Positions 1,614 through 45,162 are shown, counted from the stretch's first letter. The stretch is DNA of 64,000 nucleotides from Candidatus Babeliales bacterium (GCA_016929235.1 JAFGJD010000004.1:171164-235163), one strand, 5' to 3'. Numbers and translations: made by a program. Notes: generated from the letters alone by a model not told the origin.

Positions 1614-2913
1614 ACAATATGTTGCGAAGAGTACGAGTTTTGTTACAGCAGCGATTTTTTTACTTAGTTGTATGACAAGTACAGTATCTGCATTTTTCCC
1701 GATTAATATTTTTCAACCCTATGATCAGAATACATATCGGCAGTATCGTTGGAAAGATCTTAAATTTGCTACGGGCTTAACAGGAGAGTTTGGATATCAT
1801 ACGGTGGGCCGAAGTGAGGTAACAACATCTGACGATCGTACAAAATCCAGTTCTGAAACAGATGTTTTGCAGATTTGGGAATGCGAACAAAATGCGTTAG
1901 CTATGTTGAAAGGGTTGCCGTCATCGACAAATCTAGGGAGCTTTGCACAGCTTGCCAACATTGATGATGACGATGGAGTGCGGGGGCATATTGTCCTTAC
2001 CGGTGATCTGTCTATGCAGGCAAACGTTCCGTTTCATTTTCGTTGGTATCTGCCGCATGGATTTATTTTTGGAGCTTATCTTCCTGTGTTATCCATGAAG
2101 CTTGATGATATTTCTATTATTGATCGTACACAATCGATTACTGCGGAAGACCTGTTGGTTAAAAGTGTGCTTACCAATAACATTGTAGCTAATGTTCGTG
2201 CACTAACTGGAATCAAGTTGTGCGGGTGGGAGCAAGTTGGTATAGGTGATCTATCCTTTATGATGGATTGGCAGCGTAACTATCCACAAGCAAAAGAATT
2301 ACTCAAAAATGTTCGGCCTCGTTTACGAGTTGGACTTACATTGCCGACAGGAAAGAAAACTGATGAAGATGAACTTCTTTCAGTACCATTCGGGAATGAT
2401 GGCTCGTTTGGCGTTGTCTTTGGGGGGGGGCTCGATCTGACCCTTGGGTATAAACTCAAAGTTGGTGCTGATGCAGAGTTTCTCAACTTATTTAACAATA
2501 TGCGCGAGCGGCGAATTAAGACATATAACACACAAACTGAACACCTATTCCCAGTCAAGGTCGGTGTATTAAAGGATTATGGTTTTACTGAACGCTTCAA
2601 TCTCTATCTTGAATTTTTTGAAGTCGTTAAAGGGCTCACGCTCAGAGGGACTTACCAATACTATCAGCACCACGAGGATGAATTGAAGGTAATTGGCAAT
2701 CAGTATTCTAGTATTATTGCGAATACGTCACAGCGGTTTGAAGAGTGGACAATGCACAATGTCATTCTTAATCTGAATTACGACTTTCGCCACATTGTTT
2801 CAGATGACTCATGGTTTAAGCCGTACATTGCATTCTTTTATAAAAAAGGAACCAATGGCAAAAATTGTGTTCTTACCGATACTTTTGGATTTACGTTTAG
2901 CCTGAGTTTTTAG
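1606..2913 (+). CDS. predicted outer-membrane beta-barrel protein
   Basis: Has a signal peptide (..LLSCMTSTVSA/FF) and an alternating amphipathic strand pattern. The C-terminus ..GFTFSLSF ends in Phe, as in BAM-dependent barrels. Its N-terminal mature motif FFxIxxQ(P)Y is shared with the OMP at 40552-42108. Contains a G9 tract at 2422-2430. Confidence 0.6.
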   Translation: MNRQYVAKSTSFVTAAIFLLSCMTSTVSAFFPINIFQPYDQNTYRQYRWKDLKFATGLTGEFGYHTVGRSEVTTSDDRTKSSSETDVLQIWECEQNALAMLKGLPSSTNLGSFAQLANIDDDDGVRGHIVLTGDLSMQANVPFHFRWYLPHGFIFGAYLPVLSMKLDDISIIDRTQSITAEDLLVKSVLTNNIVANVRALTGIKLCGWEQVGIGDLSFMMDWQRNYPQAKELLKNVRPRLRVGLTLPTGKKTDEDELLSVPFGNDGSFGVVFGGGLDLTLGYKLKVGADAEFLNLFNNMRERRIKTYNTQTEHLFPVKVGVLKDYGFTERFNLYLEFFEVVKGLTLRGTYQYYQHHEDELKVIGNQYSSIIANTSQRFEEWTMHNVILNLNYDFRHIVSDDSWFKPYIAFFYKKGTNGKNCVLTDTFGFTFSLSF

Positions 2914-3866
2914 GTTGGGACCACGTCTGTAATCATGCCAGATTCAAATGCTTGTTTCTTTGCAAGACCCTCATACAGTGTGCGCTGCAGTGCTTGAGCC
3001 TTTGTTTCTAAGAGCTCTTCTTGCTCTTCGATGCTTGTTAAAGCTGAGTTGGTTTGTGTGGCGTAGAGAGCTTCTTCAAAGAAATCAAGATCAAGCATAC
3101 TTGCTGTTGTATCTACAAAGTATCTAATGCGATGTGTTAGTGACCATGCAAGCTCATTAAGATCATCGTAATCACCCACAATATGTGCATCTGCAAGTCG
3201 TGCGACATGCTCTGCAATGGAGTTCATGTTAGACCAGAGTTCGCGATCTTTTGGATCCCATACTAACTTGCTGAGCCCAATTTCTATGAAGCGGATTATG
3301 GATTGGCGGAGATACTCAAGAGGAATCTCTTGGTAGGCATCAGGATCTATAGTGACAAGCAATTTTTCTGATAACGTATCGATATGAGTGCGCGGATTGT
3401 CTTTAAATCCGCGCCACTGATTAATAAGGCCGTCAACCAAAATTTTGCGAATTTCTTCTTTACGTTCTTCAGGATCGCGGGGGCTTGCTTTAAACCAGTA
3501 CCCAACCCTGTCGGGAAGAAGTTCCAAAAATCCTGCGAAAGTATAAGCGTTTACGTGGGAACATCCCTTTAATTTTTGTCCGAATAAGGAGAAAGCTGCT
3601 TTCACGTATTCACGATCTTCACCGGACTCTTTTGCATGAATAAGGAACTGGTCAAGGTGACTCATGTTGTGTGGAAGAAAGTCTTCTGCATAATGCCTTG
3701 AGTTGTAAACTGATTCGAAAAAGAGTTCTAATCCTGAAGGAATTTTGAGAGGCAAAAGGAATAAGTCGAGATTGGGGTTATTCTCAAGTGTGTCATATGC
3801 TTGCAAACCTGATAGTATTACAGTAAAGATCAATAGTAAGACGCATTTTTTGATATTCATACCCAA
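2910..3866 (-). CDS. hypothetical secreted protein (helical)
   Basis: 318-aa ORF with an N-terminal signal-like segment (MNIKKCVLLLIFTVILSGLQA). Convergent with, and overlapping by 4 nt, the OMP gene. I recognise no motif. Confidence 0.55.
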   Translation of the reverse strand: MGMNIKKCVLLLIFTVILSGLQAYDTLENNPNLDLFLLPLKIPSGLELFFESVYNSRHYAEDFLPHNMSHLDQFLIHAKESGEDREYVKAAFSLFGQKLKGCSHVNAYTFAGFLELLPDRVGYWFKASPRDPEERKEEIRKILVDGLINQWRGFKDNPRTHIDTLSEKLLVTIDPDAYQEIPLEYLRQSIIRFIEIGLSKLVWDPKDRELWSNMNSIAEHVARLADAHIVGDYDDLNELAWSLTHRIRYFVDTTASMLDLDFFEEALYATQTNSALTSIEEQEELLETKAQALQRTLYEGLAKKQAFESGMITDVVPT

Positions 3867-3975
3867 CCCTTTTAGATGAATAGCGCTTGTACTGCTTTTT
3901 CATCTTCGATTGTAGCATGGCGTAAGGGCCAAGCGCAATGAGCATGACCGGTAGACGGGTAAAGTTGAGGTTTGT

Positions 3976-5196
3976 ATGGCATTATATTTGTATCAAGCGT
4001 TTAATAAGGCTGGTAAGAAAATTACCGGAACCTTAGATGCCTCTTCAGGAACTGCTGTACGCGATCAACTAGGTAAAAGGGGGCTGTATCCAATTTCTGT
4101 TATTCCTTCTTCACCTGAAAAAGAGCGTGGATTTCGGCTTGCAAGTCTCTTTGAGCGATCTGTGTCAATTAAAGACAAGATTATGTTTACTAAACAGTTT
4201 GCTGTCCTTCTCAAATCAGGAGTTGCTCTTGTAGATGCCCTTGAATTGCTTGTCGATCAATTTGAGGGACGGTTTAGATCAATATTGATTACCATCAAAG
4301 ATAATGTGCGTGAAGGTAAGTCATTAGCAGAGTCGCTTGGTGCGTATCCAAAGGTATTTGATACTACCTATGTCCAATTGGTTCGTGCGGGTGAGGCAAC
4401 GGGTAGACTTGAAATAATTCTAGAACGTTTAACAAGTTATTTAGAAAAGACTGATGACCTTAATAAGCGTGTTAAATCTGCCATGACCTATCCACTGATT
4501 CAGATTGGTATTATTGGTGTGATTATGATTTTTCTCATGACGTTCGTGGTCCCCAAATTGGCGGAAACATTTCAACGCCAAGGACAAGAACTTCCTGGCA
4601 TGACAAAAGCGCTTATGTCTATTTCTTATTTTCTTTCTCATTATTACCTTGTGCTCTTATTATTGCTGGTGGGTGTAGTTGCTTTGTTTGAGTACTGGCG
4701 TAGTACCGAGGCCGGAGGACGGTTGTTAGATCGCATTAAGTTGAAGCTTCCCATTGTGAAATATTTTACACGTATGAGTGCTGTAGTTCAGTTCAGCAGG
4801 ACCTTAGGTATGCTTGTTGAGGGTGGTGTGAATCTTGCAGAGTCTCTTGATATAGTTGTGAAGATTATTGATAACAAAATTTTAGCTCAAGAGCTTCGTG
4901 AGGCCCGTGACAAAATTATAAAACAGGGTAAGATTGCCCAGTTTCTCAAGCAGACGGATATTTTCCCACCAATAGCCGTCCATCTTATCAAAACAGGAGA
5001 GGAGAGTGGGAGTTTAGATACCATGTTGATGACCGTTGCAGAGAACTATGAGGTAGAGCTCAATGAGCTGGCTGATGGCTTATCGACAGCTCTGCAGCCG
5101 CTCATGCTTCTAATCATGGCAGTTGTCGTAGGATTTATTGTGTATTCAATTGCGCGGCCGCTTATGAGCCAAAGTGCTCTTGCGGGTATTATGTAG
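3976..5196 (+). CDS. gspF: type II secretion / type IV pilus platform protein (GspF/PilC family)
   Basis: 406 aa with two repeated T2SS-F-like halves (..FTKQFAVLLKSGVALVDALELL.. and ..FSRTLGMLVEGGVNLAESLDIV..) and three TM segments. First gene of the pseudopilin operon. Confidence 0.9.
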   Translation: MALYLYQAFNKAGKKITGTLDASSGTAVRDQLGKRGLYPISVIPSSPEKERGFRLASLFERSVSIKDKIMFTKQFAVLLKSGVALVDALELLVDQFEGRFRSILITIKDNVREGKSLAESLGAYPKVFDTTYVQLVRAGEATGRLEIILERLTSYLEKTDDLNKRVKSAMTYPLIQIGIIGVIMIFLMTFVVPKLAETFQRQGQELPGMTKALMSISYFLSHYYLVLLLLLVGVVALFEYWRSTEAGGRLLDRIKLKLPIVKYFTRMSAVVQFSRTLGMLVEGGVNLAESLDIVVKIIDNKILAQELREARDKIIKQGKIAQFLKQTDIFPPIAVHLIKTGEESGSLDTMLMTVAENYEVELNELADGLSTALQPLMLLIMAVVVGFIVYSIARPLMSQSALAGIM

Positions 5197-5206
5197 GAGG
5201 AATTGT

Positions 5207-5638
5207 ATGCAGATTCACAGTCGTCCCAAACATGTTAAGTCAGGATTTACGTTAATCGAAATTATTATTGCAATCGCAATAATGAGTTTCATGATGGCTG
5301 TTGTTGCACCAGGGGTGTATAAATGGCTTGGATTTGGAAAGGTTCGTCAAACAGAAGCAAATGTTAAGGTGCTTCAAACATCAATCTTGCATTTCAACTT
5401 GGATACTAATGGTTATCCACAGCGGTTGGAAGATCTTGTTCGTCGTCCCTCAGATGAGCGACTTTCTGCAAAATGGCGAGGTCCATATGTTGAAGGATCA
5501 AATATACCTGACGATGGTTGGGGTGAGCCATTTGTATATCGCGTAAAACCGGGGGCACAGCCGCCATATGAACTGTATTCATACGGTGAAAACGGTCCTG
5601 ACGCTCCTCGGGAGGAGTGGATAGGTGTCAAACACTAA
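5207..5638 (+). CDS. gspG: major pseudopilin (GspG family)
   Basis: ATG 5207 is preceded by AGGAGG (5195-5200). Prepilin leader and cleavage motif KSG/FTLIEIIIAIAI. C-terminal GspG-like ..WRGPYVEG..DGWGEPFVYR...YELYSYGENG. Confidence 0.9.
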   Translation: MQIHSRPKHVKSGFTLIEIIIAIAIMSFMMAVVAPGVYKWLGFGKVRQTEANVKVLQTSILHFNLDTNGYPQRLEDLVRRPSDERLSAKWRGPYVEGSNIPDDGWGEPFVYRVKPGAQPPYELYSYGENGPDAPREEWIGVKH

Positions 5639-6176
5639 GGGGTTTTCCCTCCTCGAGATTATCGTTGCCATAGCATTGCTTGCATTTGCAACGTCAATTG
5701 TTGTTCCTGCATTGCGCCAGCGACGTGTAACCTATCAACGTGATGATTTGGTGATTAATTTGAATGCACTTATGAAGCTTGGTTGGGAGCAAGCAATCAT
5801 TACAGGTAAGGTGCATCGTGTTTGGTTTAATTTGGGTAAGAATCTTATCGAAATCCAAGTTCAGCAAGATAAGAATTCTGGTCAGGATAAATCCTTTATC
5901 CGGATAGACTCGGAGTATTTGCGGCCTTCATATGAATGGGCACAATCGCTTCAGCTTAAAGACTTTTTCATCGAGGGCGAGGATGAGCTACATAAGCATC
6001 ACCAAACAGATGAAGTGTGGTTTTTTATCACTCCCGACGGGCTGACACAGAATGTATCGTTGAATATATTTGATACACAAGATACGCAACAGTCTGATGC
6101 AGGTGCTGGATTTAGTTTAATACTAAATCCGTTTACTGCGCAGTTTTCCGTACAATCATCGTTTTACTATCCATAA
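5625..6176 (+). CDS. minor pseudopilin (GspH-like)
   Basis: GTG start overlaps the gspG 3' end. N-terminus MSNTKG/FSLLEIIVAIALLAF is a prepilin-type cleavage/methylation motif. Size and operon position fit GspH. Confidence 0.7.
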   Translation: MSNTKGFSLLEIIVAIALLAFATSIVVPALRQRRVTYQRDDLVINLNALMKLGWEQAIITGKVHRVWFNLGKNLIEIQVQQDKNSGQDKSFIRIDSEYLRPSYEWAQSLQLKDFFIEGEDELHKHHQTDEVWFFITPDGLTQNVSLNIFDTQDTQQSDAGAGFSLILNPFTAQFSVQSSFYYP

Positions 6177-6189
6177 GGAAGGTACGGGT

Positions 6190-6600
6190 ATGCATTATCG
6201 TGGGTTCACGTTTGTTGAGGTTGTTCTGACTATTGCCTTAATTGGCTTTATTCTGACGCCATTGCTTGTAGTTCAGAATAACGTTCTACGTTTGGTGATG
6301 AAATCCAGTGATCGCGCACGACGTATCTTCATCCTTAAGAACGCGTTTTCTGAAGCAGCCATCAATGTAGATAATGAAGAAGATGTCACGAATCGTTCTT
6401 TTGAAAAACAGTATGAAGTTCCCCATATGTCATTAAAGTATACTGTTATGCCGATTGTGAAAGAGTCATCACTGAAAGGGTTTTCAGAAGTGTATCTTTT
6501 GAAAGCTTATGGTTCCTGGCAGCGCATGTATCAGGAACACTCTGAAACCATGATCAGTTTCTTATTTGTGCCTCCTAACGAGAAAAAGGAATCGTCATGA
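6190..6600 (+). CDS. minor pseudopilin (GspI-like)
   Basis: N-terminus MHYRG/FTFVEVVLTIALIGF is a prepilin motif. 136 aa, third pseudopilin in the operon. Confidence 0.65.
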   Translation: MHYRGFTFVEVVLTIALIGFILTPLLVVQNNVLRLVMKSSDRARRIFILKNAFSEAAINVDNEEDVTNRSFEKQYEVPHMSLKYTVMPIVKESSLKGFSEVYLLKAYGSWQRMYQEHSETMISFLFVPPNEKKESS

Positions 6601-7481
6601 GGCGCGGGTTCACTTTGATTGAAATTGTCATAGGACTGGCGCTATCCTCATTACTGGCAGCTGCGTTATATAGTTCATTATTTCAAACACAACGAACACA
6701 ATCATTAGTAGATTCATTTTCTGAATTGGATTCTTCATTGCTTTTGATAATGCATCAATTGGAACATGATTTTGCAGGAGCCGTAGTTTTTTGCGAGCCA
6801 AAGAAACAAACAAAGAAAGAAGCAGATAAAACAAAAACTCTCAAGCAACAGTTTTTTGGAGCTTGTCACGATGATACTTTTAGCATTGTGACGTTTCTTT
6901 CTACCAATCCATTGAGTCGTTATGCTGTGACAACACCGCGCCTTGTTCGTATTGCCTATCGTTTGAAAAAAAATCAAGGGAACGGCCTCTATTCGTTGAT
7001 GCGGCAAGAGTCAGACAATCTACATTGGTTTTCGCAGCGTGAAGAAGAACAACCAAAACCGATACTTTTATCCGGTGCTATTGAAGTATTGTCATTAGAC
7101 TATATCGTAACTGACACGAGTGGAGAAAAGTCGGAGGTCAAAACATATAGAGAATGGAATAGTGATGCAGAAAAGAAGGATAAGAAGCAGCCAGATGTCG
7201 CGACTCCATCGTATATAGGCATAACGTTGACCATGCGTGATAGTGTAACAAGCCGCTCAGAGACTGTTTCATGTAAATTTCCAATCTATTCAACAAAGCA
7301 GTGGTGTTATGAGTTGAAACCACAAGAGAAGCAAGTTGATCAGTCCAAGCAACAGGTTGAGCGACCGAAGAAAAATGCTTCGGTTCTTCCACAGGGACTT
7401 TCTTTTAAAAAACAAAGTGTACGTCCCAAAAAACGAACCATCACATTAGCGCGTCCTGCACGAGGAAAAAGGAAATCATGA
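6597..7481 (+). CDS. minor pseudopilin (GspJ-like) with Lys-rich C-terminal tail
   Basis: ATGA overlap with the upstream gene. N-terminus MRRG/FTLIEIVIGLALSSLL. Size and position fit GspJ. The basic tail (..KKRTITLARPARGKRKS) is unusual. Confidence 0.65.
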   Translation: MRRGFTLIEIVIGLALSSLLAAALYSSLFQTQRTQSLVDSFSELDSSLLLIMHQLEHDFAGAVVFCEPKKQTKKEADKTKTLKQQFFGACHDDTFSIVTFLSTNPLSRYAVTTPRLVRIAYRLKKNQGNGLYSLMRQESDNLHWFSQREEEQPKPILLSGAIEVLSLDYIVTDTSGEKSEVKTYREWNSDAEKKDKKQPDVATPSYIGITLTMRDSVTSRSETVSCKFPIYSTKQWCYELKPQEKQVDQSKQQVERPKKNASVLPQGLSFKKQSVRPKKRTITLARPARGKRKS

Positions 7482-8521
7482 AGACGCAGAGATCGGGTTA
7501 TATTCTCGTTTTGGCCCTTTTGTTGTTGACGTTAGGCATCGTGATCACAACAAATATTTTTAATACCGGATCAGTGTATAGTATGCAGACGCGAACACTT
7601 GTTGATCGTGAAAAGGCTCGTCAAGTGGCTGTAGGTGGCCTGGAGCTTGCTAAGCGTGAATTAACAATTACGCTCACTGATGAACAAAAAGAAAAGCAAA
7701 AAAATGATTCTGCGTTAGAGACTAAACTTCTTCTTGCACACCTGTTGCCTGTATTAAATCGTATGCAGCGTTTCGTGCTCAAAGAAGCGGTTGATGGACT
7801 TGATGGAGAAGTTGGGATTTGTATTAGTTCTGAGTTCGGGAAAATTAATCTAAATGTCTTGTATGATTTCAAAAATAAGAAATTTATTGGAGAAGGTAAT
7901 CCCCAGGGCGATATGAGAAAGGTTGCACAAGCGGTATTCAATAAACTTCCCAGGGCGGAACAGGATGGAATGTTTGCTGCATTTGAGCGCTTTTTAAAAA
8001 AACAGGAACAACCACTTAGTGACACGACCGAGCTGTTAAGTATTAAGGAATTTCAGCAATTTGGTAATGACCTTTTCTATCAACCGCCACTTTCTAAAGA
8101 GAGCAGGACCGTTGCATTGACTGATATATTTACCGTTGAAAGAACTACAGCAGAATTAAATCCATGGCTCTTGTCTAATTCATTGTGTATACTACTCGGA
8201 TTGCAAGCGGCAGAGGTAAATGATATTTCCAATAGGAAGTCTGAGGGTAAAAAATGGGCACAGAATTTTGTGAACAAATGGACCCTAGAAAATGATTGGA
8301 ATACTAGATTGCAACCGATTTATAAGAAAGATTTCGCAAGTCTTCCGAAGGAATTTGTTTCTCTTTTGAACACACAATTTGAATCCGGTACATTTTCTGT
8401 GCTAAGTTATGGGAAAGTTGGTAACATTACGCAACGAGTTTATGCCATTCTAGAGAAACAAACGGCGGTGCAAAAAGGGAGAGATCTCCCGTTTGTTGTA
8501 AAAAAAATGTATTGGTTTTGA
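7478..8521 (+). CDS. GspK-like minor pseudopilin
   Basis: ATGA overlap with the upstream gene. Hydrophobic N-terminus without the Glu5-type motif (MKTQRSGYILVLALLLLTLGIVI), as in GspK. 347 aa, last pseudopilin position. Confidence 0.6.
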   Translation: MKTQRSGYILVLALLLLTLGIVITTNIFNTGSVYSMQTRTLVDREKARQVAVGGLELAKRELTITLTDEQKEKQKNDSALETKLLLAHLLPVLNRMQRFVLKEAVDGLDGEVGICISSEFGKINLNVLYDFKNKKFIGEGNPQGDMRKVAQAVFNKLPRAEQDGMFAAFERFLKKQEQPLSDTTELLSIKEFQQFGNDLFYQPPLSKESRTVALTDIFTVERTTAELNPWLLSNSLCILLGLQAAEVNDISNRKSEGKKWAQNFVNKWTLENDWNTRLQPIYKKDFASLPKEFVSLLNTQFESGTFSVLSYGKVGNITQRVYAILEKQTAVQKGRDLPFVVKKMYWF

Positions 8522-8536
8522 TAAAGGGGATGAACG

Positions 8537-10174
8537 TTGCAAGTAAAAACCGAAACACGAGTTGGCGTTTTTATCATCATTGCCATCGGTATCTTCTTTT
8601 ATATGACGTTCCAGATTGGCGTCTTTCGGCTTGATCGTAGTAACTACGTCCAATACACGGTGTATTTTGAAGATGTTTCTGGATTACAGAAAAAATCGGA
8701 TATCAAAATTGCCGGCGTAAAAGTTGGGTGGGTTGAGTCGGTTGATCTTTTGCAAGATGAGATGCAGGCCAAAGCTCATATAATGGTTCAGAAGAAATAT
8801 CGTTTGCATCGTGATGCATATGCGATTGTCCGTCAGGATGGTCTGTTGGGTACTAAATACTTAGAAATTGTTCCAGGAGATCCCCTTTTGCCTGGACTTG
8901 GATCTGGTGAATCTTTGAGTAAGCCTGGTAAGTCGCCCGTTGATATCGATGAGTTACTTCAGCAGTTTAAGGATATTGCAACAAATGTAGAGGATGCGAC
9001 TGACTCTATCAGACATGCTATTGGTGGTGACGACGGAAAGACTAAGCTCAAAGAAACATTTGATGATCTTAATGCTGCCGCAGATCGCATGGCAGAATTC
9101 TCCTCAACCTTTAACAGAATTTTGACGAATAACGAAACAAATGTTGATTCCATCATGTCCGATTTCAAAAACTTTAGTCATGATTTGAAAGATGGATGGC
9201 CCACGATGCAACAAAGTATTGAACGTATTTCTGATGTAGTTGATCGTGACTTTCAACGTTTGACTGACAAGTTTGAATCAACAGCAGAATCTCTTGAGGA
9301 AGCGGCTATTCAAGCGCGCCAAGGATTACGGAGCTTTGGTGAAGTTGCAGATAAATTGAATGAGGGGCGGGGTCTACTTGGCAAACTTATCACCGAAGAT
9401 GAGACGTACCACGATATTAAGTATGCTGTTCAAGGCCTCAAAAATTATTTTGCCAAGATGGAGCGTGTTGGCATTGTCTTTGATGCGCACTCAGAAGCAA
9501 TGTGGGGTAAAGCAGAATATTTCTATGATCCGCTCGATGAAGATTTTTACATGCAGGATGCTAAGGGTTATTTTGGTGTAAGAATTCATCCAACAGAAGA
9601 TTATTTCTTTGTTATGCAAGGCGTTTCAAGTCGCAAAGGATGGATAGAGCGAGAACATATTGAACGGGTTGTTGAGCCAATTTTGATTGAACGCATTGAT
9701 GAGTCGCTTCGAATGGGTGATGAAGTGACAACAACATCTGTTCCGGTAACGATTATGGCGCCAGAACCTGGTGTAGAACATATTACGACACGTCACCAAC
9801 GAGACAGTCGTCTCAGATGGAACTTGCAACTTGCTAAGGCGTACAAGGATCTTGCGATTCGCTTCGGATTGTTTGAAAGTTCGGCAGGTGTAGCAATCGA
9901 TTATGACTTACCATTGCATTCTGATAGTTTCCGTTGGATTACCAGTATAGAATTGTATGACTTCCTTGGGGATTATCGTATTAATGATGGTAATCCTCAC
10001 CTCAAGTGGTTGAACAGGGTCTTTGTCTTCGATCATCTATACATGACCTTCGGTGCTGATGACTTTATCAGTAAACACAACGCCAATGCATTCTTTGGTG
10101 TCGGATTACGGTTTGGCGATGATGATATCAAGTATCTAGTGTCAAAAGCTGGAACTGGTTCGTTGCTGGAATAA
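8537..10174 (+). CDS. MCE/MlaD-domain protein with coiled-coil and beta-rich C-terminal extension
   Basis: TTG start 15 nt after the gspK-like stop, with a GGGGA SD-like upstream. N-terminal TM segment followed by an MCE signature (..YTVYFEDVSGLQKKSDIKIAGVKVGWVESVDL..AYAIVRQDGLLGTKYLEIVPG). A helical middle is followed by about 230 aa of alternating-strand sequence. Confidence 0.8.
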   Translation: MQVKTETRVGVFIIIAIGIFFYMTFQIGVFRLDRSNYVQYTVYFEDVSGLQKKSDIKIAGVKVGWVESVDLLQDEMQAKAHIMVQKKYRLHRDAYAIVRQDGLLGTKYLEIVPGDPLLPGLGSGESLSKPGKSPVDIDELLQQFKDIATNVEDATDSIRHAIGGDDGKTKLKETFDDLNAAADRMAEFSSTFNRILTNNETNVDSIMSDFKNFSHDLKDGWPTMQQSIERISDVVDRDFQRLTDKFESTAESLEEAAIQARQGLRSFGEVADKLNEGRGLLGKLITEDETYHDIKYAVQGLKNYFAKMERVGIVFDAHSEAMWGKAEYFYDPLDEDFYMQDAKGYFGVRIHPTEDYFFVMQGVSSRKGWIEREHIERVVEPILIERIDESLRMGDEVTTTSVPVTIMAPEPGVEHITTRHQRDSRLRWNLQLAKAYKDLAIRFGLFESSAGVAIDYDLPLHSDSFRWITSIELYDFLGDYRINDGNPHLKWLNRVFVFDHLYMTFGADDFISKHNANAFFGVGLRFGDDDIKYLVSKAGTGSLLE

Positions 10175-10206
10175 TCTGTCTCTACCATAGTCCGATAGGT
10201 TACGCG

Positions 10207-11637
10207 ATGACAATGCGGCTTATCTTCTTGTGTTATATAGGTACTTGTTGTGGGGCTCCCGTATCATTGTTGGAACAATCGGCTTATTGTCTGGGATGTA
10301 CAGTAACTATTCCTCTTACCAATGCAGGTGCGCCCGATCTTTCAAAGCTTGCATCGTACATTTACCATCTCTCGGATAGCAATGAACGAGCGCGCGCCAT
10401 AATTGTTGATGAAGTTCGTAAACGATACGGCTCTATGCTTGCTCAGATAGAACAACAATGGTTTCCAGATGATTGTTCAACAAGTGATTGTCTTGCCAGT
10501 CGCTGGTACCACGAGAAGGATGTTCCTGCGTGTGCAACGAGGCAGTATGTCTATAATTATCCAAACCCAACACAAGATAGTCTATGGTTTCTATTGCCGC
10601 ATGATGAGCATGATGTAGCCTTAGGCAACGATGCGAATTGTGCTGATCAGACTCTCAGAGCTTTAAAGTTGCTTGCATCGTATCATGCGCATGACCGTGG
10701 ACATCGTATTCGTATGTTTTCGTGCAATGTGCGTACGACTATGCAGGCCATCCATGCGTTTATCCAAGAAGAGTATGAAGATGGTATTGCGCCGCTTGTA
10801 TGTGTTACTCATCGAGAAAGCAGTCCTTTAGTACAGGAACTTGCTATGACCTATTCTGTTGATTTGTATCTTCATCTAGGAAATGGATATAATCCCGAAC
10901 ACGGTAGGGGTGTTCCGGTACTGAAAATTCCTTATCAAGAAGAACAGCATCGATCCTGGTGGTCACGCGCATTGCCAACGCTGCTTGTTGGTGGTGTGGA
11001 AAAGACAGCAACGTTTGTTAGCAAACAAGTGTTACTTGCAGCTCGTACACCGCAGGGATACACCAGAATTATGACAGCGGCGCGTTCAGTAGGTGGTGAT
11101 GTGGTAATGAATGGTCTTCATCAAACAACCCGTCTTGGTGCATATCTTATGAAGAATCCTGCCCTTGGTCATTATGCATATGCGGCGGCGGTTATTGTTC
11201 CTTTGGCATGGGATGCATACAAAGCATATAGCAATGACAGTGGTGCGATAGAGGCAGGAAGCAATAGATATTGCCACAGTGGAGGAATTACTCTGCAGAT
11301 GTCGGTTCTGAATCGGGAAAGTACATACGCAGAACTACCTAAAATGATCAAGGCATTACCCTATATTATGAGGGATATTATCGAGCATTTTCAATTTCAT
11401 GTAGTACGGGGAGGCACTTTTTGTGTTGATATAAATGAGGCATATGATCCACCATATGTGATTATGCTTGCGCCTCAACAGATGTTGCATGTTCCTGACT
11501 ATCCTGTTGTTCTATGGCCTTCTCAGATATTCTATGACCATAGAGATTCTGCTGGTTGCTATGACCAAGAAGTTGGAGAGAGTACGCGCCAATCAGAGTT
11601 ACTTGTGCGGCGTTACGCGGTTATTGTGCCAAAATAA
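10207..11637 (+). CDS. hypothetical Cys/His-rich secreted protein
   Basis: 476-aa ORF 32 nt after the MCE gene on the same strand. Hydrophobic N-terminus (MRLIFLCYIGTCCGAP). No motif recognised. Confidence 0.55.
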   Translation: MTMRLIFLCYIGTCCGAPVSLLEQSAYCLGCTVTIPLTNAGAPDLSKLASYIYHLSDSNERARAIIVDEVRKRYGSMLAQIEQQWFPDDCSTSDCLASRWYHEKDVPACATRQYVYNYPNPTQDSLWFLLPHDEHDVALGNDANCADQTLRALKLLASYHAHDRGHRIRMFSCNVRTTMQAIHAFIQEEYEDGIAPLVCVTHRESSPLVQELAMTYSVDLYLHLGNGYNPEHGRGVPVLKIPYQEEQHRSWWSRALPTLLVGGVEKTATFVSKQVLLAARTPQGYTRIMTAARSVGGDVVMNGLHQTTRLGAYLMKNPALGHYAYAAAVIVPLAWDAYKAYSNDSGAIEAGSNRYCHSGGITLQMSVLNRESTYAELPKMIKALPYIMRDIIEHFQFHVVRGGTFCVDINEAYDPPYVIMLAPQQMLHVPDYPVVLWPSQIFYDHRDSAGCYDQEVGESTRQSELLVRRYAVIVPK

Positions 11638-12185
11638 AGTAGTTGTTGTGATAATGTTTTGGCCTGTTCGTATTGTCGTTTGATTGTGAGATTTTCCAGT
11701 TCTTGGATAGTTTGCTGTTGTTGTTTAAGTGACTCAGCGGTTATTTGTAGTAGGCGGCCAAGGCAACAGTACCACAGTAATTGTGCATACCAATGTTGTC
11801 GTTGTAGAAGATGTAGTTGGTTTACAATTTGATCCAGAGGAGAGGAAGTGCTAGATGTAGGCGGTTGCGCGAGTACTACAATTATGAGCAAGAATAGAGA
11901 TTGAATCGTGTCATGATGTATAGTCTGTTTTGGTGCAGTAGATTCTTTCGGGAGATGGCTTTTGAGAAGGACAATAGCTGTTGTATTCTCGTGTTGTTGT
12001 GCGTGATCACAGAGTGTATCAATAAGTCTAGGCGTTAATCGGTGTAGTCCAAACAGTTGTAGTTGGCGTATGAGTGTTACATCTCCTCCACATTCTATGG
12101 TTTTTTTGAGTTGTGCAATATTTACTGCGTTGACATTCCAATGGGTGCTACTCAGGAGAACACATAACGTTATTATCTTTTTCAT
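11613..12185 (-). CDS. hypothetical secreted protein
   Basis: The listed ORF 11613-12380 is trimmed to internal ATG 12185, which gives a signal peptide (MKKIITLCVLLSSTHWNVNA). The longer version would overlap the upstream gene by more than 230 nt. Confidence 0.5.
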   Translation of the reverse strand: MKKIITLCVLLSSTHWNVNAVNIAQLKKTIECGGDVTLIRQLQLFGLHRLTPRLIDTLCDHAQQHENTTAIVLLKSHLPKESTAPKQTIHHDTIQSLFLLIIVVLAQPPTSSTSSPLDQIVNQLHLLQRQHWYAQLLWYCCLGRLLQITAESLKQQQQTIQELENLTIKRQYEQAKTLSQQLLYFGTITA

Positions 12186-12840
12186 AATAGTTCTTTTTTT
12201 TGAATACTTGTGTCCATGTAAGCATATAATGAGAAAGGGTGTTAAGTTGCTCAATACTAGTTTGTGCTTGCTCTTGCATAAGAATATGGTTACGAAAGAA
12301 CATGGTGAGAGGGGTCTTAGCAATGAACGAGCGCAGTGAAAGATAATTTTGTAACATTTCCTTTTCGCCAATGATATCATTGAGTGCCGCTATACACGGC
12401 TCGAGCTGGTTGTATTCATTTTCGCAATATTTTACGTGGACCTCGTACAAAAGATCTTCGTCATTGTAGGAATGGTATCGCAGCCATGTTGCCCAAGAGT
12501 CAGGAGATGAGAGAATGTGCTCTCCACGCTTTATAATCGCAATACAATAGAGAAAAACGAGACTACCCCCTGCGAGAAACAATGAGTGTATAGGGTTATA
12601 CCGTGATGTTGTCGCAGGAAGAGCTGTTGGTTCTTGAATTTGATGAATATGTGTTACGGCATGGGTTCCATGGATTAAGATTCCATGAGATCCTGAGTAA
12701 CTTTGTATAGGTTCTGATTGTTTGAAAGCGAGAGCCCCAAGTGTTGCTGAAAAAAGATAAGGTAGTGCTTTTGAAATAACAACACCGCCGGCGGCTACTA
12801 TGCCGCCTGCAATTGACCACATACGCATCCCTTCCCCCAA
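12148..12840 (-). CDS. hypothetical membrane protein
   Basis: 230-aa ORF with two hydrophobic segments (WSIAGGIVAAGGVVISKALPYLF; LFLAGGSLVFLYCIAII). No motif recognised. Confidence 0.5.
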   Translation of the reverse strand: MGEGMRMWSIAGGIVAAGGVVISKALPYLFSATLGALAFKQSEPIQSYSGSHGILIHGTHAVTHIHQIQEPTALPATTSRYNPIHSLFLAGGSLVFLYCIAIIKRGEHILSSPDSWATWLRYHSYNDEDLLYEVHVKYCENEYNQLEPCIAALNDIIGEKEMLQNYLSLRSFIAKTPLTMFFRNHILMQEQAQTSIEQLNTLSHYMLTWTQVFKKKNYYEKDNNVMCSPE

Positions 12841-20729: not shown

Positions 20730-20821
20730 TGCCTCTCGTTGGAATGTCTTTCAGAAAAGTGCTACAGTAGGACTTACCTGACGTTTTCCTTTTAGAAATG
20801 TTGTGTTCGATGAGGCAGAGT

Positions 20822-21574
20822 ATGTCACAGGATTTTTTGCGTTTGCATAATCTCAAAAAGTATTACTACGCCAATGGGCGCGTTACTAAGGCACTTGATG
20901 GTGTATCATTTTCCATCGGAGCTGGCGAGATTATGTCGTTGCTCGGTGTAAACGGTGCGGGCAAAACAACGCTTTCTGCATTACTCATTACATTGACTCG
21001 ACCAACGGACGGGGATATAACGTGCAATGGGGTTTCTATCTACAAAGATATTCCCGCGTTTCGCAAACTAGTTGGTTTTTGTCCGCAAAAGCCCAATCTT
21101 AATGAAGACTTAACAATAGAACAGTTACTCTGGTTCTCCGGAAAATATTATGGACTTCCTGAGGCAAGGTTGAAGGAACGCATGGAGCATTTGCTTGATG
21201 CGTATTCGTTGCAACCATATCGCACATCAAAACCTGACGTATTGTCAGGGGGTTATGCGCGGCGGGTGCTTATTGCACGCGCCTTGATTCACGATCCCAA
21301 GCTTCTTGTTCTCGATGAGCCGACCGTTGGGCTTGATCCTCATATTCGACACCAGCTCTGGGAAAATATTCGTGATCTCAAAAAACAGGGAGTTTCTGTT
21401 TTGTTAACGACGCACTACCTAGATGAGGCAGATGTGCTTTCAGATCGTGTATGTATTTTGGATAAGGGCAAGTTAAAGCTTATTGACACCCCAAGTAACC
21501 TGAAAGCAATGCATAACAAGAGTACGCTTGAATCATTATTTATAACTCTCATGAATGAAGAACCTAAGGATTAG
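20822..21574 (+). CDS. ABC transporter ATP-binding protein
   Basis: Walker A GVNGAGKTT, signature LSGGYARRV, Walker B LLVLDEPT. Start chosen at the third ATG (MSQDFLRLHNLKKYY); the listed ORF starts at 20798. Confidence 0.9.
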   Translation: MSQDFLRLHNLKKYYYANGRVTKALDGVSFSIGAGEIMSLLGVNGAGKTTLSALLITLTRPTDGDITCNGVSIYKDIPAFRKLVGFCPQKPNLNEDLTIEQLLWFSGKYYGLPEARLKERMEHLLDAYSLQPYRTSKPDVLSGGYARRVLIARALIHDPKLLVLDEPTVGLDPHIRHQLWENIRDLKKQGVSVLLTTHYLDEADVLSDRVCILDKGKLKLIDTPSNLKAMHNKSTLESLFITLMNEEPKD

Positions 21575-21584
21575 TAGGAAGCTC

Positions 21585-22379
21585 ATGCAGAATCGCATTC
21601 AACAATATGCTGCTGTTATGTGGCAGCTTCTTAAAACGGACTTTGTGGTATTTCGACAGAATTTTCTAGATGATGTTATCAATATTTTTGTTTGGTTAGT
21701 AAGTTTCGTAGCGATTGTGGCACATATCTATCCTAAGATGGGACTTACCAGTTCCTTTGGTATGTTGTTTGCATTTTCTATGATGGCAGGCGAAAGTTAT
21801 TGGCGTATTTGGAATAGTAGCTTCTTACTTATTGATGATCTTGAGGGAAAGCGAATCATTGATTATTACTGTACATTGCCGATTCCATCTTGGATGGTCT
21901 TTCTTAAGGAAATTTTGGCATTTATGTACAAGAGTCTTATCTTTGGAGCCATAATGTTCCCAATCCTTCTTATACTTCTCGGGGACTATATGGTGTGGGA
22001 CTCCTTTTCTAGCATGAAACTTATTTTTATGTTTCTTGCTGCCACATGTTTTACTGCAACAATGTTTCTTTTCCTTTCGAGTTTTATCGTCGATCGCAAT
22101 AATCTCCGAAAGATTGGTATTCGTATTTTATTTCCATTATGGATGTCCGGCGCGGCTGAATTTCCATATAGGGTTATACAGGCAGCGCTTCCTACATGGG
22201 CTGGTTCATTACTCCTATTGAATCCAGTGATTTACCTTATGGAAGGAATGCATAATGCAACGCTTGGGCCTTCAGGCTTCTTCCCATTTTGGATCTGCAT
22301 GGTGGTTACTCTGTGCGTTTCAGTCGCATTTGGGATTGTTGGGATTATTCGATTTAAGCGACGGCTTGATCTTGTTTAA
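21585..22379 (+). CDS. ABC-2 type transporter permease
   Basis: Six hydrophobic helices directly after the ATPase gene. ATG 21585 follows AGGAAG. The alternative ATG 21555 overlaps the ATPase gene. Confidence 0.7.
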   Translation: MQNRIQQYAAVMWQLLKTDFVVFRQNFLDDVINIFVWLVSFVAIVAHIYPKMGLTSSFGMLFAFSMMAGESYWRIWNSSFLLIDDLEGKRIIDYYCTLPIPSWMVFLKEILAFMYKSLIFGAIMFPILLILLGDYMVWDSFSSMKLIFMFLAATCFTATMFLFLSSFIVDRNNLRKIGIRILFPLWMSGAAEFPYRVIQAALPTWAGSLLLLNPVIYLMEGMHNATLGPSGFFPFWICMVVTLCVSVAFGIVGIIRFKRRLDLV

Positions 22380-28313: not shown

Positions 28314-29060
28314 ATGAAGGCCGTACGAAGTGCCGTCATCTTGGGCATGGTAGTGCTCGCCGTGATGTGGAGCTTTGCACGTAAGTCCACACCGGTTCCG
28401 GCTGTGGTGCTCTTTTCTTTTGATGAATTTCTTTCACGTTCTGAACAGGACAAACTTATTATCTATTGTGCGGATCATATTCGATCGAAAGGGCTTGTGG
28501 GATTGCAAGCCGTTAAGGATGTATTTGCTTCGTTGGCAGATATATCAGCGAGACGAGCATCATCAAAAGCATTTACTGTTCATGTAACGTCTGCGCAGCC
28601 GAGATTATTTGTTAACAACACATATGTTCTTGCACAGGGTCCGGTATTATTGCCGTGTAGTGTCTATGCGCAAACAACACTGGAACAGCTGCCAAAAATG
28701 ACCGTTGCGCATGATGAGTTTCGGCGCACGACACTTCCCAGGGATATGGAGTCATTTATCGTTAATAACGGAAGCGATATGCTACATCAGTTTGATGTAA
28801 CGTGGCTAAGCCCAACATCTATTATTGCATATAACAGGGATGCTCGTGATTTTGCAATTTTGTGTGGCCAGGAGACGGTACCAAATCGAGAAGGTATTGC
28901 TACATGTCGCTCAATCTACACACAGCTCAAACCAAAGTTACAACAATGCGTTTGTGCTGATGTTCGCTTTGATAATCAAATTATTGCGTTTTATGAAAAA
29001 AAAGATCTGTTACAACAGGAACCATGTAGTGACATGATAATCAGGAAGGGGATCAGGTAA
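28314..29060 (+). CDS. ftsQ: FtsQ/DivIB-like cell division protein
   Basis: Short cytoplasmic N-terminus and a single TM (AVILGMVVLAVMWSF), followed by a periplasmic domain. Lies immediately upstream of ftsA with a TAATG overlap. Assignment rests mainly on position and topology. Confidence 0.6.
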   Translation: MKAVRSAVILGMVVLAVMWSFARKSTPVPAVVLFSFDEFLSRSEQDKLIIYCADHIRSKGLVGLQAVKDVFASLADISARRASSKAFTVHVTSAQPRLFVNNTYVLAQGPVLLPCSVYAQTTLEQLPKMTVAHDEFRRTTLPRDMESFIVNNGSDMLHQFDVTWLSPTSIIAYNRDARDFAILCGQETVPNREGIATCRSIYTQLKPKLQQCVCADVRFDNQIIAFYEKKDLLQQEPCSDMIIRKGIR

Positions 29061-30292
29061 TGGCACGAATAGCTCAGGATACGGTATGGACTGCAATTGA
29101 TATTGGAACAACGAAAATATGCGTGTTGATTGCACAACATCTGGGTGATAATACATTTGACGTTTTGGGCTTTGGAAAGACCCCTTCTGAGGGATTGAGC
29201 AAGGGTGTTGTAGTTGATATTGCTAAAACGGTGGGATCAATTAAACGAGCTGTTCAGGAAGCTGAGTTGATGGCCGGTATGACTATCGACGTTGCTCATA
29301 TTGGTGTTTCTGGTGCTCATATTAAGTCACTTAATTCACATGGCGTTGTGCCTATAAAACGTGGCGAAGTGCGGCATGAAGATATACAAAATGTTATTGC
29401 CTCAGCGCAGGCGGTACCTGTTCCTGAGGGGCAACAAATTCTTCATGTCTTACCGCAATATTTTGTTGTGGACGGTCAAGAAAAGGTTCAGGATCCTCTT
29501 GGAATGTACGGTATTCGCCTTGAAGCACAAGTTCATATTATTACTGGTTCGGTGGCGTCGGTACAAAATCTTATCAAATGTTGTGAAATGGCAGGCGTAA
29601 GAGCTGGAGATATTGTTTTGGAGCAGCTTGCATCTGCTGAGGCAGTATTAACAAACGATGAACGGGAGTTGGGTGTTGCCGTTCTTGATATTGGGGGCGG
29701 GACGTCTGATCTCGCCTTATATCAAAATGGAAGTATTCGACATACCATGGTCCTTCCGATTGCAGGGAATCACTTCACAAATGATCTGGCTATTGGATTA
29801 CATACTACACTCAGAGATGCCGAGCGGGTGAAACGAGAGCATGGTCTGGCCTTGCTTGAACTTTTAGAAGATGACGATGTACTCGAAGTAGAAATGGTAC
29901 AGGGAAATGAAAAGAAAATTATTTTCCTGAAGGACTTAGTGTCAATCATTCAGCCGCGTTCTTATGAGTTATTGTCATTGGTACATGAAGAAGTGATCAA
30001 ATATCATTTACAAGCATTTATGCGATCTGGGCTTGTTTTAACTGGTGGCGGATCGCTTTTGCGCGGCATGAAAGAGCTTGCAGAGGAGCTGTTTGAAGTT
30101 CCGGTTCGTATTGGTGTGCCGTCATCAAGTTATGCCTTGCCGGATGTATTGCAGTCTCCGGTTTACGCGACGGCATACGGATTATTGGTACATGTGGTCA
30201 AAAAAGAAGGGGGACGCGCGTTCACACGAGAAGGCTATGTTGTAGGTAGAATTTTGGATCGAATGAAATCTTGGGTATCAGATTTTTTTTAA
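29060..30292 (+). CDS. ftsA: cell division protein FtsA
   Basis: Actin-fold motifs AIDIGTTKICVLIA and VLDIGGGTSDLALY, and a C-terminal amphipathic tail (..MKSWVSDFF). Confidence 0.95.
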   Translation: MARIAQDTVWTAIDIGTTKICVLIAQHLGDNTFDVLGFGKTPSEGLSKGVVVDIAKTVGSIKRAVQEAELMAGMTIDVAHIGVSGAHIKSLNSHGVVPIKRGEVRHEDIQNVIASAQAVPVPEGQQILHVLPQYFVVDGQEKVQDPLGMYGIRLEAQVHIITGSVASVQNLIKCCEMAGVRAGDIVLEQLASAEAVLTNDERELGVAVLDIGGGTSDLALYQNGSIRHTMVLPIAGNHFTNDLAIGLHTTLRDAERVKREHGLALLELLEDDDVLEVEMVQGNEKKIIFLKDLVSIIQPRSYELLSLVHEEVIKYHLQAFMRSGLVLTGGGSLLRGMKELAEELFEVPVRIGVPSSSYALPDVLQSPVYATAYGLLVHVVKKEGGRAFTREGYVVGRILDRMKSWVSDFF

Positions 30293-30301
30293 GGAGTAGT
30301 G

Positions 30302-43517: not shown

Positions 43518-44129
43518 ACGAGCCAGTTCGTTTCGTAAGACATAAAAAGTAAATGCGGTAAGTAGCACACTGTCAAAGCGGTCCAGGAGCCCGCCGTGTC
43601 CGGGAAGCAGTGATCCTGTATCTTTGATATTATTTTTTCGTTTAAGCCAGGAGACAAAAAGATCGCCAAGAAAAGCGGTGGCACAAAGCATAAGCCCATA
43701 TCCAATTCGTATAAACAAAGCTTCATGATGTGTGAGCAGTACAAACAGTGTCGTGGTAATAATTATTGCTCCTATAAGGCCTTCCCACGTTTTTTTTGGA
43801 CTAAGTCGTGGGACGAGTTTGTAGTGTCCGATTAATGTTCCAGTGATGTATGCACTTACATCAAAGGTAAAGACAAGAAGAAACAAGTATACAATTAGTG
43901 GACGATAATCAGTCCGATTGAGCGCAATGATTGTTATAAAGCCTAGTGTAGTATAGATGGTTGCGAGATTCTGGTAGCGTTTCAAGTATGGAAGCTCCCA
44001 GCCAACAATTACAATAAAGAGAGTAAATAGGAGTAGTGAAAAGATAAGTGGGCGTGGAAATATAAAAAATAGTAACAGGGCTACACCGAATGCGATTCCA
44101 GTGAGGCTGCGTTGTACGAAAGATTTCAC
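43506..44129 (-). CDS. cdsA: phosphatidate cytidylyltransferase
   Basis: CDS signature ..SWLKRKNNIKDTGSLLPGHGGLLDRFDS.. and a multi-pass membrane topology. Short at 207 aa. Confidence 0.85.
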   Translation of the reverse strand: MKSFVQRSLTGIAFGVALLLFFIFPRPLIFSLLLFTLFIVIVGWELPYLKRYQNLATIYTTLGFITIIALNRTDYRPLIVYLFLLVFTFDVSAYITGTLIGHYKLVPRLSPKKTWEGLIGAIIITTTLFVLLTHHEALFIRIGYGLMLCATAFLGDLFVSWLKRKNNIKDTGSLLPGHGGLLDRFDSVLLTAFTFYVLRNELARLLL

Positions 44130-44140
44130 GGTTTTCTTTC

Positions 44141-44983: not shown

Positions 44984-45162
44984 GGATAGCCTCCGCACAG
45001 GGGTTCATAATCATATGATCGAGAGTATAGAAAAGTTGCCGTAGTCGGTAAAGCTCGAGGCTTTTCTTGAGAAGCGTCTGCGAGTCATAGTAGGATCATT
45101 CTCGTGTGTATGGTATTCTGTGAAAAACAAAGAATCTGCCGCATGATTTGAGGTTGTGCTGA

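Follow-up and report, generated by a model that had tools for sequence, protein, structure and literature searches.

A pseudopilus gene cluster ending in a long mlaD gene across the Dependentiae

Introduction

Why should a gene for an MCE-domain protein stand at the end of a row of type II secretion genes? The locus that raises this question lies in a 64,000-nucleotide (nt) stretch of DNA from Candidatus Babeliales bacterium (GCA_016929235.1 JAFGJD010000004.1:171164-235163). This whole stretch is called the window here, and positions are counted from its first letter. A preliminary description, made from the sequence alone, read positions 3976 to 11637 as a secretin-less pseudopilus operon (gspF to gspK) that continues into an orphan MCE gene and a cysteine-rich secreted protein. 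It proposed that the pseudopilus is functionally tied to the MCE protein, either as an unusual trans-envelope apparatus or with the MCE protein as an alternative outer-membrane partner.

The analysis described here favors a plainer answer, with a probability of roughly 0.58. The locus would be a conserved co-expression operon that joins two ordinary envelope machines. One is a pseudopilus module and the other is the phylum's only MlaD, which would work with MlaE and MlaF encoded at an unlinked locus. This answer does not hold that the two machines form one apparatus.

Organization of the Probable gspF-mlaD Operon

Open reading frames (ORFs) were called on the window, their products were searched against Pfam and NCBIfam profiles, and the junctions between genes were read directly from the sequence. 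Seven tightly packed genes run along the + strand from 3976 to 10174, namely gspF, gspG, three genes for minor pseudopilins of the N-methyl type, a divergent gspK and an MCE gene, referred to below as mlaD. An ORF of 476 amino acids (aa) comes next. The ORFs and coordinates of the preliminary description were reproduced, and the T2SSF, T2SSG, N_methyl and MlaD domains that it expected were matched. The genes of the operon and the non-coding region before them are as follows.

3867-3975: intergenic region of 109 nt between the divergent u3 and gspF genes; the sole sizeable non-coding gap 5' of the seven packed genes and the putative promoter region of the operon
3976-5196, + strand: gspF, inner-membrane platform protein of 406 aa; Pfam T2SSF 2e-54, in two stretches
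5207-5638, + strand: gspG, major pseudopilin; T2SSG 1.6e-18, N_methyl 1.1e-07; cleavage motif G/FTLIE
5625-6176, + strand: GspH-like minor pseudopilin of 183 aa; N_methyl 9.2e-06; motif G/FSLLE
6190-6600, + strand: GspI-like minor pseudopilin of 136 aa; N_methyl 1.1e-04; motif G/FTFVE
6597-7481, + strand: GspJ-like minor pseudopilin of 294 aa; N_methyl 9.3e-07
7478-8521, + strand: divergent GspK, putative pseudopilus tip subunit of 347 aa without Glu5; NCBIfam T2SS_GspK 1.1e-06 (below cutoff)
8537-10174, + strand: long mlaD, 545 aa; transmembrane anchor, one MCE domain, helical stalk at about aa 137-309 and predicted C-terminal β-barrel at about aa 312-526

The junctions were likewise as first described. 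The GTG start of the GspH-like gene at 5625 sits 14 nt inside gspG, ATGA overlaps occur at 6597 and 7478, gspK is separated by 15 nt from the TTG start of mlaD, and 32 nt lie between mlaD and the 476-aa ORF. From gspF to mlaD all junctions are overlapping or no longer than 15 nt, and a Shine-Dalgarno motif of the GGAGG or AAGGA type is present at every one of them. The gspG gene was correctly recognized, but its start has to be moved: the ORF opens at GTG 5174, which had been taken as the start, and the probable start is ATG 5207, preceded by AGGAGG.

The absence of terminator-like hairpins between the genes was borne out by a terminator scan, which gave three weak hairpins, all within coding sequence, against 8.0±3.0 in shuffled sequences. 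A consensus scan found no promoter-like site on the + strand between 7478 and 8536, that is, in gspK. The scan for sigma-70 promoters did no better on the actual sequence than on shuffles and located no promoter, in the u3/gspF region or elsewhere. Most likely, the seven genes are transcribed as one mRNA from the u3/gspF intergenic region, with coupled translation.

Conservation of the gspK-mlaD Linkage

Is this arrangement peculiar to one genome? A scan of one genome per species yielded 80 loci, with which the proteins of the window were compared by tblastn. The titles of most loci name the Dependentiae, the Babeliales or candidate division TM6; for the remainder, the bin labels are generic or evidently mistaken. 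The DNA of the window is accordingly assigned to a bacterium of the Dependentiae (TM6). In every Dependentiae locus with upstream DNA (78 of 78), gspK directly precedes the MCE gene, and the adjacency first noticed in a single genome is thus conserved. The gap between the two genes has a median of 16 nt and measures 8-27 nt in 70 of 77 loci. The complete order u3(-)/gspF-G-H-I-J-K-mlaD was found in about 70 loci. The 78 loci with an unbroken gspK-mlaD junction span 38-57% protein identity, and the order of the flanking genes is highly fluid. Without exception, the phylum's only mlaD forms the final cistron of the gspF-K operon and is unlinked from mlaEF.

A few loci have lost the full operon. 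In L029 and L050, gspF-J are absent from the surrounding 20 kb and the gspK-mlaD pair is kept. In L045, a simple inversion of the block u3-gspF-J has split the operon exactly between gspJ and gspK. L045 and L050 are mutual nearest relatives, and the nearest relative of L029 (L008) has an intact operon; therefore, at least two independent breaks have occurred, both between gspJ and gspK and none between gspK and mlaD. The pair stands behind unrelated genes of the same strand in L029. In L050 the gene upstream is on the opposite strand, so that gspK-mlaD evidently gained a promoter of its own after the separation. The invariant adjacency and the survival of the pair where gspF-J were inverted or moved away indicate that the linkage is, on an evolutionary scale, no incidental juxtaposition. 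Downstream of mlaD, no conserved same-strand gene was found among 74 loci, and in 45 of these the next gene is convergent.

The Pseudopilus Components

On sequence grounds, the products of the six gsp genes look like standard components of a pseudopilus. GspF is 45-59% identical across the 80 loci (tblastn). The N_methyl profile is matched above cutoff by the H-, I- and J-like pseudopilins, and all four minor pseudopilins have the expected N-termini. The specific GspH, GspI, GspJ and GspK models match them only below their curated cutoffs: in NCBIfam, the GspH-like protein has weak GspH and ComGE matches, the GspI-like protein weak XpsI and GspI matches, and the GspJ-like protein a gspJ match of 1e-07.

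The 347-aa product has no Pfam match. Among 30 aligned orthologs, 27 match NCBIfam T2SS_GspK, the best at 2.3e-11 and all under the curated cutoff. The family shares an N-terminus of the form G-Y/F-I-L-V, without Glu5, and an invariant E-x-G-K-x-x-x-N motif. A profile built from the 30 orthologs gave no meaningful match to PDB sequences and did not recover the GspK structures, so that the identity of the protein rests on the sub-threshold NCBIfam matches and the motifs. In a mirror-tree comparison of distance matrices across 52 loci, which is suggestive only, GspK correlated with the H- and J-like pseudopilins at a partial r of 0.50 and with MlaD at a lower value of 0.38, as fits a genuine tip subunit. 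We accept the product as a real but divergent GspK.

The MCE Protein as a Long MlaD

What kind of MCE protein is encoded behind gspK? The Pfam MlaD domain covers aa 37-114 (1.3e-18) and is followed by weak matches of a coiled-coil-like kind; TIGR04430 is matched at 1.8e-26, below its cutoff. More than 700 full-length homologs of 525-560 aa exist. The 119 among the matches listed, the query aside, are 47-74% identical, and the few of these that have been named are called "MlaD family protein [Candidatus Dependentiae bacterium]" or a variant of this. The protein from the closest species-level genome is 57% identical. Two other types of MCE system do not match. The PqiB/LetB type has three or more tandem MCE domains and is encoded with PqiA/LetA, whereas this protein has a single MCE domain, and the PqiB model reached 9.5e-04 over just 44 residues. 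The actinobacterial Mce operon type, with six paralogous MCE genes and two YrbE permease genes, is not matched by a single MCE gene with no paralogs or permease genes nearby.

A full-length AlphaFold2 (AF2) model, based on 12 sequences, begins with a transmembrane helix at residues 5-32, continues with an MCE β-domain at 37-112 and long helices at 137-309, and ends in a β-rich C-terminus, with a mean predicted local distance difference test score (pLDDT) of 56.5. The stalk helices at 137-309 have a pLDDT below 50 in the monomer, as is expected of an oligomeric stalk. Foldseek related the N-terminal part to MlaD and to mycobacterial Mce1 subunits. Foldseek recognized only the MCE part of the full-length model, and the C-terminal domain was then modeled on its own. 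The AF2 model of aa 305-545 (241 residues) has 12-13 antiparallel strands, a pLDDT of 67.6 and a predicted template modeling score (pTM) of 0.59. Its Foldseek matches in the PDB are transmembrane β-barrels in 50 of 50 cases among the matches listed, including porins such as Veillonella parvula OmpM1, autotransporter β-domains, FadL, OmpG and KdgM, as well as engineered and designed barrels.

In V. parvula, a long MlaD has been described that bridges the envelope for phospholipids (Grasekamp et al., 2023; PMC10665443). Supplementary Data 1 of that study includes 11 Dependentiae genomes, ten with one MlaD and one with two, and every MlaD is flagged BetaBarrel. In its modeled architecture, the MCE protein of the window is a long MlaD of the V. 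parvula type with a predicted outer-membrane barrel.

Partners Encoded at Other Loci

Where are the remaining parts of the two machines? No secretin, GspC or mlaEF gene turned up in the operon or among the other scanned ORFs of at least 120 aa in the 64 kb, which include every ORF above 400 aa. No match to Peptidase_A24 (prepilin peptidase) was found among the scanned window ORFs. The term "secretin-less" therefore describes the locus and the window. It would not describe the organism, as two copies of gspD have been reported in all TM6 genomes (Yeoh et al.; PMC4776705) and a derived pulD in Chromulinavorax (Deeg et al.; PMC6561590). The claim that gspC, D, L and M are all missing from the 64 kb agrees with the scan for the secretin and GspC and is not quite right for the L/M part, as a PilN-family gene is present near the far end.

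61557-62153, - strand: PilN-like assembly-platform protein of 198 aa; Pfam PilN 1.6e-07, 31.7 bits (cutoff 22.8)
62190-62903, - strand: ORF of 237 aa upstream of pilN, without a Pfam match; candidate PilM/GspL-like partner, judged only from where it lies and from its N-terminal sequence

Both genes are downstream of prmC, and the 237-aa ORF could encode a truncated PilM/GspL-like cytoplasmic partner.

The word "orphan" is likewise correct for the surroundings of mlaD and incorrect for the organism's phylum. With E. coli MlaE and Dependentiae MlaE as queries, mlaE was found neither in the window nor, in any of the 80 genomes, within ±10 kb of mlaD. In the published dataset, MlaE is encoded at a different position from MlaD in 10 of 11 Dependentiae genomes, MlaA, MlaB and MlaC occur in 0 of 11, and MlaF in a recognized cluster also occurs in 0 of 11 (PMC10665443, Supplementary Data 1). 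An unlinked pair was found on L094, a Dependentiae metagenome contig retrieved through gspE, where, at 1040-2621, mlaE (Pfam 1e-75) is directly followed by the gene of an MlaF-like ATP-binding cassette (ABC) ATPase that shares 34% identity with E. coli MlaF. The order on this contig is secG, mlaE, the mlaF-like ATPase gene and hisS, about 6 kb upstream of bamD/gspE-pilin-tamB. On L094, mlaE and mlaF thus adjoin, whereas the published dataset gives no MlaF cluster for the Dependentiae. The ABC pair of the window itself (20798-22379) was considered as MlaFE and rejected, since its ATPase is DrrA-like (ABC-2) and 26% identical to Dependentiae MlaF, and its permease matches nothing. This sole ABC pair of the window is of the ABC-2 type, as first stated.

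A Second Pseudopilin Gene Coupled to tamB

The preliminary description had pointed to a recurrence of the same theme at 45163-50076, and comparison with related loci supports it. Three genes make up this cluster.

45163-46875, + strand: gspE/MshE-type secretion ATPase; T2SSE 3.2e-141, MshEN 8.7e-14; unlinked from gspF
46829-47374, + strand: additional pseudopilin, GspH/ComGD-like, 181 aa; ComGD 1.1e-08 and GspH 5.5e-03 (both below cutoff); motif G/VSLLE
47371-50076, + strand: tamB, AsmA-like envelope-spanning protein of 901 aa; Pfam TamB 1.6e-23; ATGA overlap with the pseudopilin gene

An earlier word-indexed search with TamB had returned one relative, 28% identical, on a contig that ends upstream, and a metagenome scan anchored on gspE was used instead. 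It yielded 19 loci of 59-69% identity, taken to be Dependentiae. The order hisS / cdsA(-) bamD(-) / gspE-pseudopilin-tamB-pld is present in 8 of the 11 metagenome loci with enough downstream DNA, and the junctions between the pilin gene and tamB are short or overlapping. The genome loci L017 and L050 have no tamB after gspE. Overall, gspE-pseudopilin-tamB is conserved in 8 of 13 loci and is less universal than gspK-mlaD; a pseudopilin gene follows gspE in most Dependentiae gspE loci.

The window carries the corresponding block at 43506-51147, in the order cdsA(-) bamD(-) / gspE-pseudopilin-tamB and a gene for a PLD-like phospholipid enzyme, which is kept in many Dependentiae. The block unites genes of outer-membrane assembly, phospholipid metabolism and secretion. 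Outside the Dependentiae, the metagenome contig L104 carries at 6108-9740 a short mlaD, mlaC and mlaA and, 3 nt further on, a gene for a T2SSE/MshE-type ATPase, which is followed by that of a 1994-aa FG-GAP/glycosyl-hydrolase protein. This arrangement is unique among about 60 non-Dependentiae gspE loci.

Comparison With Known Systems

The closest known counterpart of the MCE protein is that of V. parvula, which likewise has an inner-membrane anchor, a single MCE domain, elongated helices and a C-terminal β-barrel (PMC10665443). The genome of V. parvula, like the 11 listed Dependentiae genomes, is without MlaA, MlaB and MlaC. The difference is one of gene organization and not of protein architecture. 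In V. parvula, mlaD belongs to an mlaEFD operon beside tolC and tamB, whereas mlaEFD clustering was not found in the Dependentiae, whose mlaD is away from mlaEF and last in the gspF-K operon. The role may also differ, with lipid acquisition or bulk exchange in the Dependentiae instead of the upkeep of lipopolysaccharide (LPS)/phospholipid asymmetry.

The E. coli MlaD shares the MCE domain (Foldseek 5uw2 and 6xbd, template modeling (TM) scores of 0.6-0.8 relative to the target; TIGR04430 as above), and the MlaE/MlaF-type ABC partner of the E. coli MlaFEDB complex also occurs in the Dependentiae phylum. In contrast, E. coli MlaD has 183 aa and neither stalk nor barrel, it passes lipid to the soluble MlaC and the outer-membrane MlaA, and its gene is part of a contiguous mlaFEDCB set. 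Mycobacterial Mce1 and Mce4 and the chloroplast TGD1-2-3 system are MCE conduits with long helical extensions that move lipids inward, and Mce1 (8fed, 8fef) is among the top Foldseek matches. By analogy, lipid import of this kind is a plausible functional model for a parasite unable to make fatty acids. In the Mce systems, six distinct MCE subunits are encoded alongside their YrbE permeases, whereas the Dependentiae have one MCE gene. TGD2 needs a separate barrel protein, TGD4, whereas the single Dependentiae gene would provide both the MCE domain and the predicted barrel.

The pseudopilus genes share with the classical type II secretion systems (T2SS; Klebsiella pul, Vibrio eps and E. coli gsp) the gspF-G-H-I-J-K order, the G/F-x-x-x-E motifs, a GspK without Glu5 and a GspE-type ATPase. 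They differ in that gspC, D, E, L and M are outside the Dependentiae operon and mlaD is appended to it. The gspE gene is 36 kb away in the window, paired with another pseudopilin gene and tamB, a PilN-like protein is found in place of GspL/M, and the minor pseudopilins fall below the curated family cutoffs. A full-text search of the literature found no description of gsp-mlaD or gspE-pilin-tamB operons in Dependentiae.

Why Is the Linkage Kept?

The reading favored here is that two ordinary machines are co-expressed. In the lipid machine, the N-terminal helix of MlaD would serve as the inner-membrane anchor, and its MCE domain would presumably be hexameric and sit on the MlaE/MlaF ABC transporter encoded at the unlinked locus. 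The helical stalk of about 170 residues would span the periplasm and the C-terminal β-barrel would insert in the outer membrane. Together, these parts would form a conduit for phospholipids between both membranes, the substrate and the direction of movement being presumed. The pseudopilus module would be supplied with its ATPase (gspE at 45163) and PilN-like protein (61557) from elsewhere in the window and, according to the literature, with secretins from elsewhere in the genome.

What could hold these genes together? Babela has no fatty-acid synthesis, and no secretion system other than a T2SS was detected in it (PMC4378268). Chromulinavorax has no LPS synthesis genes (PMC6561590). The fatty-acid auxotrophy of the one and the missing LPS genes of the other make it plausible that MlaD serves to move lipids in bulk or lipids derived from the host. 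The linkage may be held by selection because the sole secretion system and the lipid bridge, as wall-spanning machines of a host-dependent cell unable to make fatty acids, would have to be made together.

Several points weigh against this reading. Co-transcription of gspF-mlaD is itself something that we infer from the layout of the genes; the transcripts in the Babela paper are those of ftsZ, ftsA and groEL only, by reverse transcription PCR (PMC4378268). The secretin, the prepilin peptidase and the mlaEF genes of this particular organism were not seen within its 64-kb window, which is part of a 321-kb contig. Confidence in the β-barrel model is moderate, and its matches to solved barrels have probabilities of 0.8-1.0 but low TM-scores of 0.2-0.4. 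So close a linkage amid a fluid flanking gene order is more than shared regulation would lead one to expect. Each time the operon was broken independently, the cut came between gspJ and gspK, and gspK remained beside mlaD. Finally, a second pseudopilin coupled to tamB, the gene of the other envelope lipid transporter, makes a purely regulatory account less comfortable.

The last of these points lead to a competing explanation in which the coupling is physical. The GspK-capped pseudopilus and the long MlaD, perhaps with TamB and its own pseudopilin, would share an envelope-spanning complex or act through it. For example, GspK might dock on the stalk or barrel of MlaD, or the cycling of the pseudopilus might gate lipid exchange with host membranes. 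We regard this as possible though unlikely. The invariant adjacency and short gaps of gspK and mlaD speak for it, as does the bicistron left by each break (L029; L045/L050). A parallel is provided by the pairing of a pseudopilin with tamB, often by ATGA or another short overlap, in 8 of 13 loci, and mlaD is apart from mlaEF throughout the phylum. The partial correlation of GspK with the MCE protein (0.38) exceeds those of the MCE protein with GspG (0.19) and the GspJ-like protein (0.21), and L104 brings an mlaD-mlaC-mlaA set within 3 nt of a secretion ATPase gene outside the Dependentiae. However, GspK co-varies more with the pseudopilins than with MlaD, and the architecture of MlaD is self-complete and of a type for which, in V. 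parvula, MlaEF is partner enough. No more than two or three breaks were observed, and their position may be due to chance (about 1/36 for two events with uniform breakpoints). Translational coupling alone could hold gspK and mlaD together, and the linkage to tamB is absent in 5 of 13 loci. To our knowledge, the physical coupling of a pseudopilus to an MCE protein has no precedent.

Neutral hitch-hiking is an explanation that we place behind physical coupling and consider rather unlikely. It holds that mlaD was inserted once behind gspK in the ancestor of the Dependentiae and lost its own promoter, so that any later break would silence it, and that the linkage itself has no adaptive significance. 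No promoter of its own was detected for mlaD, which has a weak TTG start with a Shine-Dalgarno motif 15 nt after gspK. The linkage is found in one phylum only, the adjacency on L104 aside, and reduced genomes have few regulators. This explanation has to account for a junction that stayed unbroken in 78 loci of such divergence despite the fluid gene order around it. Moreover, new promoters can arise, as in L050 and in L029, where the pair stands behind unrelated genes, yet gspK stayed with mlaD.

A more far-reaching form of coupling is an integrated apparatus in which pseudopilins are structural or gating partners of the MlaD and TamB lipid bridges, by which a fatty-acid-auxotrophic intracellular parasite would exchange lipid with its host. 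We consider this form improbable.

The idea that the MCE protein stands in for the missing secretin, or for GspC/L/M, in a secretin-less pseudopilus finds a basis in the lack of secretin, GspC and mlaEF genes in the operon and window, but it is very improbable, as secretin genes are reported from the phylum, a PilN-like gene is in the window, mlaE and mlaF exist in the phylum, and a pseudopilus could pass neither through a barrel with about 12 strands nor through the narrow MCE/helical tube seen in known structures of MlaD and Mce. Of the tie first proposed between pseudopilus and MCE protein, their common membership of an operon is supported, and the replacement of a secretin or outer-membrane partner is not. 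The protein has a predicted β-barrel of its own and belongs to the known long-MlaD type, and nothing points to a role as outer-membrane partner of the pseudopilus.

The 476-aa Gene and Other Neighbors

The preliminary description let the operon continue into the gene that follows mlaD and called its product cysteine-rich.

10207-11637, + strand: ORFan of 476 aa with 14 cysteines (2.9%) and a hydrophobic N-terminus; no Pfam or NCBIfam match

The junction before this ORF has no Shine-Dalgarno motif, and the protein was absent from all 80 genome loci (tblastn). In an exhaustive search of 1.84 billion representatives, it matched itself and two fragments only. These are 61-66% identical to it and are encoded on a 2-kb contig (L082), where they come directly behind an MCE C-terminus of 90% identity. 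On that contig, at 619-2032, the homolog is split into two ORFs, either by a frameshift or as a pseudogene or because the short Logan contig was wrongly assembled. The 476-aa protein is ruled out as a member of the module by its absence from the 80 loci and its presence only in the nearest relative, and the conserved unit does not extend to it. Judging from this distribution, its gene is a fast-evolving, recent and lineage-specific addition after the operon. It is cysteine-rich to a moderate degree only.

On the other side of the operon, a secreted protein is encoded in the opposite direction.

2910-3866, - strand: u3, 318 aa, secreted (signal peptide recognized by eye) and helical; no Pfam or NCBIfam match

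In about 70 Dependentiae loci, u3 adjoins gspF on its upstream side and is encoded on the opposite strand (tblastn). The distance correlation of u3 with the MCE protein is the highest of all pairs in the mirror-tree comparison (raw r 0.76, partial 0.64). U3 could be a periplasmic partner, or the correlation could be an artifact of a shared clock or of saturation, and it was not used as evidence of interaction.

Further genes were noted in the surroundings. Two large proteins without a family match, encoded on the + strand at 57-1613 and 1606-2913, are found upstream of the operon in about one third of the loci. The second of them (435 aa) has a signal peptide and ends in FGFTFSLSF, a typical C-terminus of an outer-membrane β-barrel. 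Right after mlaD, 27 of the loci L001-L080 share a convergent gene (about 250-330 aa, no Pfam match, about 0-1 kb downstream), with which the window's own convergent ORF at 11613-12380 does not cluster. Elsewhere in the window, ftsA and ftsZ adjoin and secA is nearby (29060-31510 and 33305-35854), two tRNA genes are located at 53703-53775 and 53794-53868, and a clostripain-family (C11) peptidase is encoded at 54725-55966(-).

Concluding Remarks

Both machines discussed here are of known kinds. What is new is that their genes are coupled in a fixed way throughout a whole phylum of obligate intracellular parasites, and a deeply divergent one. The impression of a secretin-less or orphan system is corrected. 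If the coupling is regulatory only, it would provide a useful annotation rule and a hint of how reduced genomes coordinate their envelope machines. If it is physical, protein secretion and intermembrane lipid transport would be joined in a way not seen before. For the biology of the phylum, the long MlaD is a likely route of lipids across the envelope in bacteria that are without fatty-acid synthesis.

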